From IMG/VR virus record IMGVR_UViG_3300012953_000012, positions 64,001 to 128,000 of that record: 64,000 bases of DNA; one strand, written 5' to 3'. This DNA is from a virus (Duplodnaviria > Caudoviricetes). Made by a program: the position numbers and the translations under genes. The notes beneath the pieces are model-generated. The model had not been told where the DNA came from. It saw only the letters and a program-made list of their open reading frames with translations, and searched no databases. This document shows, piece by piece, positions 16,625 to 18,046 of this stretch. The stretch's first letter is position 1; every line of letters starts with the position of its first letter.

Positions 16625-16839
16625 CCCGCTGTGACCGCTGCCCGAAGCCCCTCGGCGTCCATCGGGTGTCGTGGTTCAACCTCGACACCATCTGCACTCG
16701 CTGTCAGGCCCAGGAAGAAGCCCACCCCGACTACGCCTATGCCCGCGATGTAGAACGCAAGCGGGTACAGGTTGGTGACTACAACTTCGTTGGAGTCGGC
16801 TGGCCTGGAGTCAACGGCAGGGTGCTCCGCACCCGGTAG
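16621..16839 (+). CDS. Small zinc-finger-like protein (CDRC...CTRC)
   Basis: ATGA overlap; GGAGG RBS. Confidence 0.6.
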   Translation: MTRCDRCPKPLGVHRVSWFNLDTICTRCQAQEEAHPDYAYARDVERKRVQVGDYNFVGVGWPGVNGRVLRTR

Positions 16840-16872
16840 ACGGGCTATCGCCTCCGACTGTTCGGAGGCGAT
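16835..16872 (+). promoter_or_regulatory. Class L motif GGTAG-acggg-CTAT fused to an 11-bp RBS/start-codon-sequestering hairpin
   Basis: atcgcctccga-ctgt-tcggaggcgat (16847-16872) buries GGAGG and the AT of ATG 16871. Confidence 0.85.
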
Positions 16873-18046
16873 GCTCGTGAGCCGTGAGATCCAGATAGGA
16901 CACCCGTGCCCGCACCTCATCATTGAGGAGGTGGTCGCGTTAGGGGCGGATAAGAAATCACTGTCCACCCGTGCGCCTGTGTCATCAGCCAACAGCGTCA
17001 GGATCCTGGTCAACAATCAGGTCTATGTGCCGCCTGGGGGCCTCTACTCCAAAGCCATTCTTTCGGGAAGCGTGGGTCCTTACCGCATTGAGAAATGCGT
17101 GGGGTTCGCAGGACCGGAAGGCAACACTCTCACCGTGACGGCCTCGCAAGGGACTGTGACCGTTGACCTCCCCCTGTCGCAACGCCTCAGCGTGGATCGG
17201 CTGGTCCGCGCCTTGAAGTTGACGCCTCTGGATGGTCTGGTTGGGATCACCAGCGTCAACGGCTCGGTGACGTTCACGGACAACCACGCCACAGGCTCGG
17301 AGTCCGTGGTCAAGGTCAGCGGCGACGGTGCCGATTCTTTGGGTTTCGTTCAACGGGGGGCTCGCGGGCGAGAAATCTATCCGGGGTGGACCCTGGTTTC
17401 GCGACCGGACGTGCTTCCGAGTGCTGATCTGCGCGGGCTGTTCCCTGTTCCTGCCCGGTATCCTCGCTTCAAGAAGCCGGTTCCCAACGGGTCGGACTTC
17501 AAGGTCACCTACACCGCGATGCCCGAGAGGTGTCCCCGGTGCCAGGCCACCTACATCGAGAACGACTACCGCTTCAACCAGATGGGCGAGGTACGGACCA
17601 TCATCAACGAAGACCTCCTCTATCAGGCGTGCTTGAAAGCGATCCTGACGAGGAAGGGGTCGAACCCGTACCACACAGGCTATGGATCCTCCATCATGAC
17701 CCGTGTCGGGCGCAAGCGGATGGCAGCAGCCGCTGGAGCCATCCGGCAGGACATTATCCAGGCACTCCGAGGGGTCCAGGGCATTCAAGGAGGTCAGCGG
17801 AAGTTCCAGCAGGTGACTGACCGAGAGAGGCTGTACCGCGTCGAGGATGTGTCCGTGACCCCCACGGATGATCCCACGGTCGTGCGTGTCGGTGTGGTCG
17901 TCGTCAACGGCAGCAACCAACCTGTATCGCTGAACATCGTCTACTCGGCTCCGGGGGCGATAGCCCTCGCTGGGTCCAACGGTCAGTCCCTCGGGGTCTC
18001 GGGTCTGTCGCAATCCCAAACACGACGCTTCCTGATGGACGGGTAG
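16871..18046 (+). CDS. Baseplate wedge subunit with C-terminal gp25-like domain
   Basis: C-terminal GSNPYHTGYGS...QDIIQAL...ERLYRVEDVSV resembles gp25/GpW; precedes baseplate J-like gene. Confidence 0.65.
   Translation: MLVSREIQIGHPCPHLIIEEVVALGADKKSLSTRAPVSSANSVRILVNNQVYVPPGGLYSKAILSGSVGPYRIEKCVGFAGPEGNTLTVTASQGTVTVDLPLSQRLSVDRLVRALKLTPLDGLVGITSVNGSVTFTDNHATGSESVVKVSGDGADSLGFVQRGARGREIYPGWTLVSRPDVLPSADLRGLFPVPARYPRFKKPVPNGSDFKVTYTAMPERCPRCQATYIENDYRFNQMGEVRTIINEDLLYQACLKAILTRKGSNPYHTGYGSSIMTRVGRKRMAAAAGAIRQDIIQALRGVQGIQGGQRKFQQVTDRERLYRVEDVSVTPTDDPTVVRVGVVVVNGSNQPVSLNIVYSAPGAIALAGSNGQSLGVSGLSQSQTRRFLMDG

Follow-up and report, generated by a model that had tools for sequence, protein, structure and literature searches.

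A hairpin overlapping a promoter-like motif is predicted to mask the ribosome-binding site of a baseplate gene in an uncultured marine huge phage

The window analyzed here is a stretch of 64,000 nucleotides (nt), bases 64001-128000 of IMG/VR record IMGVR_UViG_3300012953_000012 (Duplodnaviria; Caudoviricetes). The source is an uncultured marine huge (giant) phage; the record is linear, 205,564 bp long, has a GC content of 62% and is ~46% complete (CheckV), and marine metagenomes are the sole source of near-identical DNA. At 16.8 kb of the window, between a five-gene operon and a gp25/gpW-like baseplate gene, a promoter-like motif, CGGTAG-N5-CTAT, overlaps the start of a long hairpin whose 3' arm contains the Shine-Dalgarno (SD) sequence of the baseplate gene. 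This hairpin is probably a control element of the kind described for phage T4, in which translation of a gene depends on where its transcript starts. Coordinates refer to the window unless they are preceded by the word genome or by the name of a related contig. The parts of the element and the genes that follow it are:

16834..16848, + strand: CGGTAG-N5-CTAT promoter-like motif, position-weight matrix (PWM) score 20.8, conserved among relatives
16840..16845, + strand: 5' strand of the outer stem, in the variable promoter spacer, with its partner at 16873-16878
16847..16857, + strand: 5' arm (anti-SD) of a perfect 11-bp stem, sharing the AT of CTAT
16858..16861, + strand: loop, CTGT, reached by the predicted start-site zone (16853-16860)
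16862..16872, + strand: 3' arm of the 11-bp stem, holding the SD sequence GGAGG at 16864-16868
16873..16878, + strand: 3' strand of the outer stem, taking in the first two bases of the GTG start codon
16877..18046, + strand: gp25/gpW-like (sheath-initiator domain) baseplate gene, 389 amino acids (aa); PF10934 and phrog_975, both weak matches
18056..21517, + strand: Baseplate J-like gene (PF04865, E 4e-22; phrog_6, E 3e-33), directly downstream of the gp25-like gene

Within the motif, CGGTAG occupies 16834-16839, the N5 spacer is ACGGG and CTAT lies at 16845-16848. The TAG at 16837-16839 is at the same time the stop codon of the 72-aa gene 16621..16839, as the initial annotation had pointed out for a shorter form of the motif (GGTAG-acggg-CTAT). 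The perfect 11-bp stem that it placed over GGAGG is also present, and forms part of a helix of ~17 bp that extends from 16840 to 16878 with one bulge. The core stem alone has a computed folding energy of -19.3 kcal/mol (z -6.1), and segment 16835-16885 reaches -36.3 kcal/mol (z -6.65), a stability equalled by none of 200 dinucleotide shuffles; the longer segment is more stable because the outer 6-bp stem pairs the promoter spacer with 16873-16878. The helix persists when folded in a 141-nt read-through context, with an SD pairing probability of ~1.0 and with bases 16877-16878 of the GTG codon in the outer stem. Among 200 gene starts of the record, each folded from -45 to +3 (mean -11.7, standard deviation 4.6), this one ranks second by stability, and it has the only fully paired SD sequence among the 25 most stable gene starts listed. 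The simple pattern CCTCC...GGAGG is not enriched, with 7 occurrences found and 7.7 expected. Rfam 15 covariance models gave no relevant match between 12000 and 19000 at E values up to 1. An inverted repeat at 11601-11667 that shares GGAGGCGATG lies inside a coding region and was judged to be a chance occurrence.

The gene behind the hairpin is recognized by its weak domain matches, and some of its homologues carry the Joint Genome Institute (JGI) name 'baseplate assembly protein W'. Its true start is assigned to GTG 16877 and not to ATG 16871, because the GTG is invariant in close relatives while the ATG is lost in several, which have ATA instead, and because the SD spacer is 8 nt to the GTG as against 2 nt to the ATG. 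The N-termini of homologues mostly read M-S-x-E-I-Q, matching GTG 16877, and in relative L011 an in-frame TAG directly precedes the GTG. The initial annotation had the stem covering the AT of the start codon; that AT, which the stem does cover, belongs to ATG 16871; the conserved GTG 16877 lies further downstream, still within the extended helix.

A position-weight scan seeded with GGT[AG][GC]-N5-CTAT converged on C-G-G-T-A-G-N5-C-T-A-T and returned 56 matches in the record, 45 of them intergenic although only 11% of the record is non-coding (~89% being coding). The matches point toward the next gene, with their CTAT ends mostly 24-31 nt ahead of its start codon, and at least seven of them have a TAG that also serves the gene before as its stop codon. 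Before the gp25-like gene the motif is kept in relatives down to ~45-50% protein identity, where the surrounding sequence is otherwise unalignable. This behavior is strong evidence for a phage-specific promoter, a role that we infer from sequence. Where the leader is shortest, with 24-26 nt separating CTAT and the start codon, the SD sequence lies only 12-15 nt past CTAT, so that the transcription start site (TSS) should fall within ~12 nt of CTAT. Past CTAT, positions 4-8 are C-rich, positions 11-14 G-rich and positions 16-19, the SD region, purine-rich, a composition that suggests a pyrimidine-to-purine start region ~9-11 nt past CTAT. From the short leaders and this composition switch, the TSS of the 16.8-kb promoter is predicted ~5-12 nt past CTAT, at 16853-16860. 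RNAs begun at 16853, 16855, 16857 or 16860 are not significantly structured (z +0.3 to +0.6).

About one third of the CGGTAG-N5-CTAT promoters also have a looser third element, GGGGTA(A/G)G, ~8-12 nt past CTAT (for example at genome 21003, 25666, 52719 and 178153), a possible marker of the start-site region that the gp25-like promoter does not have. The minus-strand gene 23182-24090 encodes a sigma-like protein, a divergent member of the sigma-70 family with an N-terminal extension of ~110-130 aa. Its family profile finds a solved sigma-H chain, with the match covering regions 2-4 (E 4e-4), weak Sigma70_r2 matches are seen in 16 of 22 family members, and the family has 915 metagenomic homologues, some of them named sigma-24 family by JGI. 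A search for a T7-type RNA polymerase (PF00940) gave no match in the record, which is ~46% complete, and the control search for RNA polymerase also matched nowhere.

The hairpin stands at the end of an operon that is preceded by a second promoter-like element, class I, of the form CCGTTAAAA-N7-CTGCTTCCGTAAGTA. There are 17 near-identical class I copies in the record, often back-to-back with A/T tracts between them; they precede clusters of small genes and an NAD-ligase operon. The class I elements, the operon and the terminators are located as follows:

14601..14631, + strand: class I promoter-like element facing operon 14686..16839, with an A/T tract upstream, 54 nt before ATG 14686
14484..14514, - strand: back-to-back class I partner facing minus-strand genes 14335..13607, which lead into a second hairpin at 13.6 kb
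14686-15279, 15276-15458, 15489-16352, 16349-16624 and 16621-16839, + strand: upstream operon of five tightly packed genes
12697-12727 (-), 14484-14514 (-), 14601-14631 (+), 30156-30186 (-), 30219-30249 (+) and 31132-31162 (+): class I copies in the window, with 11 more elsewhere in the record
34638-34668, and genome 6096-6131, 7868-7899, 16886-16919, 171220-171248 and 194724-194754: intrinsic terminator family

None of the five operon genes has a structural-protein signature. They overlap stop-to-start, the apparent gap at 15279-15489 being a 60-aa open reading frame (ORF), and the last of them, the 72-aa gene, matches phrog_27033 (E 2e-9). The evident terminators of the genome have GC stems of 12-16 bp followed by a T-rich tail (TTCGTTTTG or TTTTGCTCGTT), and the one at 34638-34668 separates a class I operon from a CGGTAG motif at 34709. 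A search for terminator-like sites within 14686-16839 returned none, in agreement with the initial annotation, which had reported no terminator ahead of the gp25-like gene. The ligase operon and small ORFs lie under class I elements, and baseplate and beta-helix genes under CGGTAG motifs; judged by this gene content, class I would act earlier than CGGTAG-N5-CTAT, and the labels early and late are used here in that sense.

The class I architecture (GTTAAA, ~15 nt, CGTAAG) resembles promoters of the extracytoplasmic function (ECF) type of sigma factor more than sigma-70 promoters. Class I leaders (14632-14685, 30250-30298, 31163-31237 and others) open with a 5' stem of the GGTGAGGG...CCCTCACC type and close with a small hairpin followed by CAA and the SD sequence. 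Relatives have an AAA_33 kinase gene within the upstream cluster; in region 908-1575 of L172, a 97%-identical Tara Oceans relative, an extra 158-aa AAA_33 (kinase-like) gene separates the 60/64-aa ORF from the 287/304-aa gene, and the corresponding part of the window, 15276-15489, lacks it.

In the mechanism that we propose, the hairpin would act as an RNA-level insulator built into a phage promoter. Transcripts from the class I element at 14601 would cross the five-gene operon unterminated and would so carry both arms of the ~17-bp helix. In this long RNA the helix would bury GGAGG and the GTG start codon of the gp25-like gene and block binding of the 30S subunit, and ribosomes would fail to initiate for that reason. 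Transcripts from CGGTAG-N5-CTAT, starting ~5-12 nt past CTAT, would be made without the 5' arm, and their SD sequence would be open and translated.

The hairpin is conserved among close relatives, which comprise 16 distinct sequences with 63-97% protein identity. All 16 have an SD-masking hairpin (-22 to -36 kcal/mol; z -1.8 to -7.2), while the length and sequence of the loop vary freely. The stem apex changes from GA/TC to GT/AC and GTC/GAC among relatives, one relative swaps G-C for A-U in the lower stem, and several further changes are G-U compatible. In the alignment 84% of cells are paired, compared with 38-49% in a control with the partner slid; four pairs show double changes, the covariation score exceeds that of all 500 shuffles, and RNAalifold recovers the same helix. 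The outer stem is kept through at least three pairing registers (CTAT pairs with ATAG in L006, L007 and L083, for example), and a single consensus structure undercounts it because the registers differ between relatives. The bases that form the outer stem, in the promoter spacer and CTAT, lie upstream of any TSS of the motif's own, and the extended helix should therefore form only in RNA begun further upstream.

The presence of the hairpin varies with what lies upstream, with the upstream contexts in relatives assigned by homology and ORF inspection. On a protein tree, the hairpin occurs in one whole clade of 11 and in six of the 11 members of its sister clade (together a 22-member clade), and the trait needs at least 3-5 changes. 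It is absent from L008, L010 and L012, where the upstream gene is divergent and has a mirrored promoter; here two mirrored CGGTAG-type promoters make up a perfect 21-25-bp palindrome with a T-rich tract behind it. It is also absent from L009 and L017, where the upstream gene is co-directional and non-structural (with a DnaQ-type exonuclease motif in L009), and where a similar palindrome with a T-rich or TCGTT-type tail, terminator-like, has the promoter in its 3' arm. The leader from CTAT to the SD sequence in these five (L008, L009, L010, L012 and L017) contains no anti-SD sequence (z at or above -1.5). The SD-masking stem occurs where the promoter directly adjoins a co-directional gene and has no such palindrome; the adjoining gene in these relatives is an e2/e4 homologue, or a metallophosphoesterase in L083. 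More distant relatives have another co-directional upstream gene, of ~285 aa, and in these the motif is kept and the hairpin mostly absent.

The mirrored-promoter palindromes lie at L008:2929-2977 and L012:2923-2976, and at the same place in L010 and L085; they include the 'variable' spacers, and the T-rich tract is on the gp25 side. One of the more distant relatives, L049 (~50% identity, on a 271-kb contig), has its own stem at 2950-3000, GACCCCTCC / AGGAGGGGTC, directly past CTAT, which masks the SD sequence of the gp25-like gene (z -4.1). This CTAT-proximal anti-SD stem is independently evolved.

A second element of the same design is found on the other side of the class I pair:

13538..13611, - strand: twin element, GGTAG-N5-CTAT followed by a 17-bp stem and an inner stem, with GGAGG in the 3' arm
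13139..13537, - strand: lipoprotein-like gene guarded by the twin, starting MKAEITALLVAVSLTAGC, a lipoprotein signal with a lipobox

The spacer of the twin is CCCCT, and its 17+7 bp fold with -48.4 kcal/mol (z -6.9); the minus-strand copy that the initial annotation had described at 13.5 kb thus does have the geometry of the 16.8-kb hairpin. It is conserved in L002 with multi-base compensatory changes in the middle of the stem. The gene it guards may encode a spanin-like or surface-exclusion protein. Among 41 promoter-gene pairs the outliers are 13611 (-), with z -7.4, and 16835 (+), with z -6.4, and both of these junctions flank one back-to-back class I pair.

Several observations weigh against a switch that depends on the transcript start point. 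A T7-like start directly after CTAT (16849/50) would leave a 9-bp stem over the SD sequence in every transcript. Strict covariation is modest, with an RNAalifold covariation term of -0.28 and double changes in only 2-4 pairs; the term is small because the SD sequence and the promoter constrain both arms. The temporal classes are drawn from gene content alone in a genome where most proteins have no PHROG or Pfam match, and few named functions can be tied to them because the annotation is almost blank. The pairing of hairpin and junction has exceptions in both directions: at genome 40661, where class I gives way to CGGTAG, there is no more than a 5-bp CCTCC/GGAGG stem (z ~-1.2, and +0.2 for the flanking 56-nt segment), and a moderate hairpin at genome 182034 (-21 to -23 kcal/mol) lies at a junction that has no class I promoter upstream, behind a gene with a CGGTAG-type motif of its own. 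SD masking as a general trait of CGGTAG-linked genes was considered and rejected, there being no excess of SD pairing (p 0.84). The reusable regulatory part envisaged by the initial annotation is supported by the recurrence of one geometry at 13.6 kb, but the association is not absolute. The hairpin at genome 182034 corresponds to L169:6990-7040 (genome ~181990-182040, minus strand; z -2.8) and lies before the ATG of a 152-aa gene; in it CGGT, the spacer and the C of CTAT pair with AGGAGA and ACCG.

The hairpin could instead stop or end the upstream transcript, as a terminator, an attenuator or a 3'-end stabilizer of the class I operon RNA, with its overlap of the SD sequence incidental. Like intrinsic terminators it is a GC-rich stem-loop, of 11 to 17 bp, that directly follows a stop codon (by 7 nt) at an operon boundary; its 3' flank, GCTCGT, resembles part of the genome's terminator tails, and sister lineages show a terminator-like palindrome with a T-rich tail at the same junction. 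Unlike intrinsic terminators, it has no U-rich tail and its 3' arm is the SD sequence of the next gene, which the arm follows in every relative, and a consensus terminator scan does not call it. A terminator role is unlikely because the T-rich tail of the genome's own terminators is absent both here (the tail reads GCTCGTGAGCC) and in all 16 relatives, and the broader account in which the hairpin acts on the upstream RNA we likewise consider unlikely.

If transcription did start directly after CTAT, the 9-bp stem would be present in all transcripts, and might both stabilize their 5' ends and act as a constitutive brake on the amount of a low-copy baseplate protein. RNA from 16849 does retain this stem over the SD sequence, few gp25-type proteins are needed per virion, and 5' hairpins open the class I transcripts of this genome. 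A brake would, however, be expected in all contexts, whereas the hairpin is lost where read-through is blocked and the gene and promoter are retained; relatives, moreover, keep the outer stem, which draws on promoter bases too far upstream for any possible TSS to include. We regard this account as improbable.

Cleavage by a double-strand-specific RNase of the RNase III type is a poorer candidate still. The helices at both loci are near-perfect and intercistronic (17 bp at 16.8 kb, 17+7 bp at 13.6 kb), phage T7 has known sites of this kind between its early genes, and processing would separate the cistrons and might free the SD sequence. But the stem falls below the usual two helical turns, with 9-19 bp in relatives and only 9-12 bp in several, no internal loop or cleavage-site feature is conserved, and simple masking explains the context dependence equally well.

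Translational coupling is very improbable. In this account the stem would be melted by ribosomes that reach the end of the 72-aa gene and then pass on to the gp25-like gene; the distance from the stop codon is 1 nt to the outer stem and 7 nt to the inner one, and stop-to-start overlaps such as those of the upstream genes are typical of coupled operons. From its known footprint, however, a terminating ribosome would cover only ~12-15 nt beyond the stop codon. This would be enough to open the outer stem with 3-6 bp more but would leave closed the apical 5-8 bp with GGAGG, and the CCTCC at 13.6 kb is out of its reach. Equally improbable is a role of the inverted repeat in DNA, whether by forming a cruciform or by binding a dimeric regulator at the promoter, for although the motif is near-palindromic (CGGTAG / CTATCG) and relatives have perfect palindromes of two mirrored promoters, such a repeat occurs at only 2-3 of ~41 promoters, and the free variation of the loop and the tolerated G-U-compatible changes (T for C in the 5' arm) fit pairing in RNA and not in DNA.

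Other searches and neighboring genes add little to the functional picture. A nucleotide search of a phage collection gave no match, nor did the first single-protein scan over viral contigs, and the single relative from annotated collections, LR745208.1 (40% aa identity), is itself unannotated. PHROG and Pfam searches with 30 genes downstream of both promoter classes and with 14 large ORFs gave almost no matches, a Protein Atlas query with the 287-aa and 197-aa upstream proteins yielded no lead, and a Pfam search for a tail sheath (PF04984) gave no match in the ~46% complete record. Beyond the baseplate genes, a gene at 21514-22482 on the plus strand is coupled to the end of the Baseplate J-like gene and its product has a 'Swiss Army Knife RNA repair' HAD domain (PF10307, E 3e-20), and a GIY-YIG endonuclease gene at 22427-22843 on the minus strand is convergent to it.

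The mechanism proposed for the 16.8-kb hairpin is not new, as it is the design of the T4 genes e, soc, 49 and I-TevI, in which an inhibitory helix forms on early or middle read-through RNA and a late promoter lies within its 5' strand (PMC3014915; PMC2988022; McPheeters et al. 1986, as cited there). In gene e the inhibitory structure forms on the long transcripts, whose yield of lysozyme is reportedly ~100-fold below that of helix-free transcripts (PMC3014915, PMC2988022). A related arrangement is attributed to Gibb and Edgell, as cited in PMC2988022, for T4 segB and Aeromonas phage Aeh1 mobE, where a hairpin hides the ribosome-binding site in the longer transcript and the late RNA is made without the inhibitory strand. 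As in the four T4 genes, the helix here sequesters the SD sequence and the start codon, the promoter-like motif (its promoter role being predicted) overlaps the first bases of the 5' arm, the gene lies downstream of another transcription unit with no terminator between, so that read-through is expected from the sequence alone, and the element occurs at several loci of one genome. Differences from T4 are also evident. The host of the element is an unrelated lineage, a marine huge phage of 62% GC known from sequence and with almost no PHROG or Pfam matches; the promoter is CGGTAG-N5-CTAT where that of T4 is TATAAATA; the upstream stop codon forms part of the promoter; and the helix also pairs the variable spacer of the promoter with the start-codon region. 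Unlike the segB and mobE hairpins, which guard homing-endonuclease genes, those described here guard baseplate and lipoprotein genes.

This design has so far been documented mainly in T4-type phages, and the same logic, with good comparative support and a different promoter, in an unrelated marine huge phage suggests convergent use. It also provides a handle on the transcription program of a scarcely annotated phage group, with two promoter classes, terminators, a sigma-like factor and predicted start sites. On the purpose of such insulators, a natural experiment with an unusually clean comparative control is offered by the sister lineages, where a terminator-like palindrome replaces the stem or the stem is missing beside a divergent neighbor. 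A broader and more tentative possibility is that, across this large clade of uncultured marine huge phages, hairpins routinely incorporate CGGTAG-N5-CTAT as a modular insulator, with the promoter forming part of the 5' arm where the stem masks an SD sequence and of the 3' arm where it is a terminator. Lineages may switch between these forms or drop them when cassettes of the other promoter class enter, invert or disappear beside structural genes. If true, the element would be a portable 'promoter plus insulator' part through which temporal classes could be mixed in a mosaic fashion.

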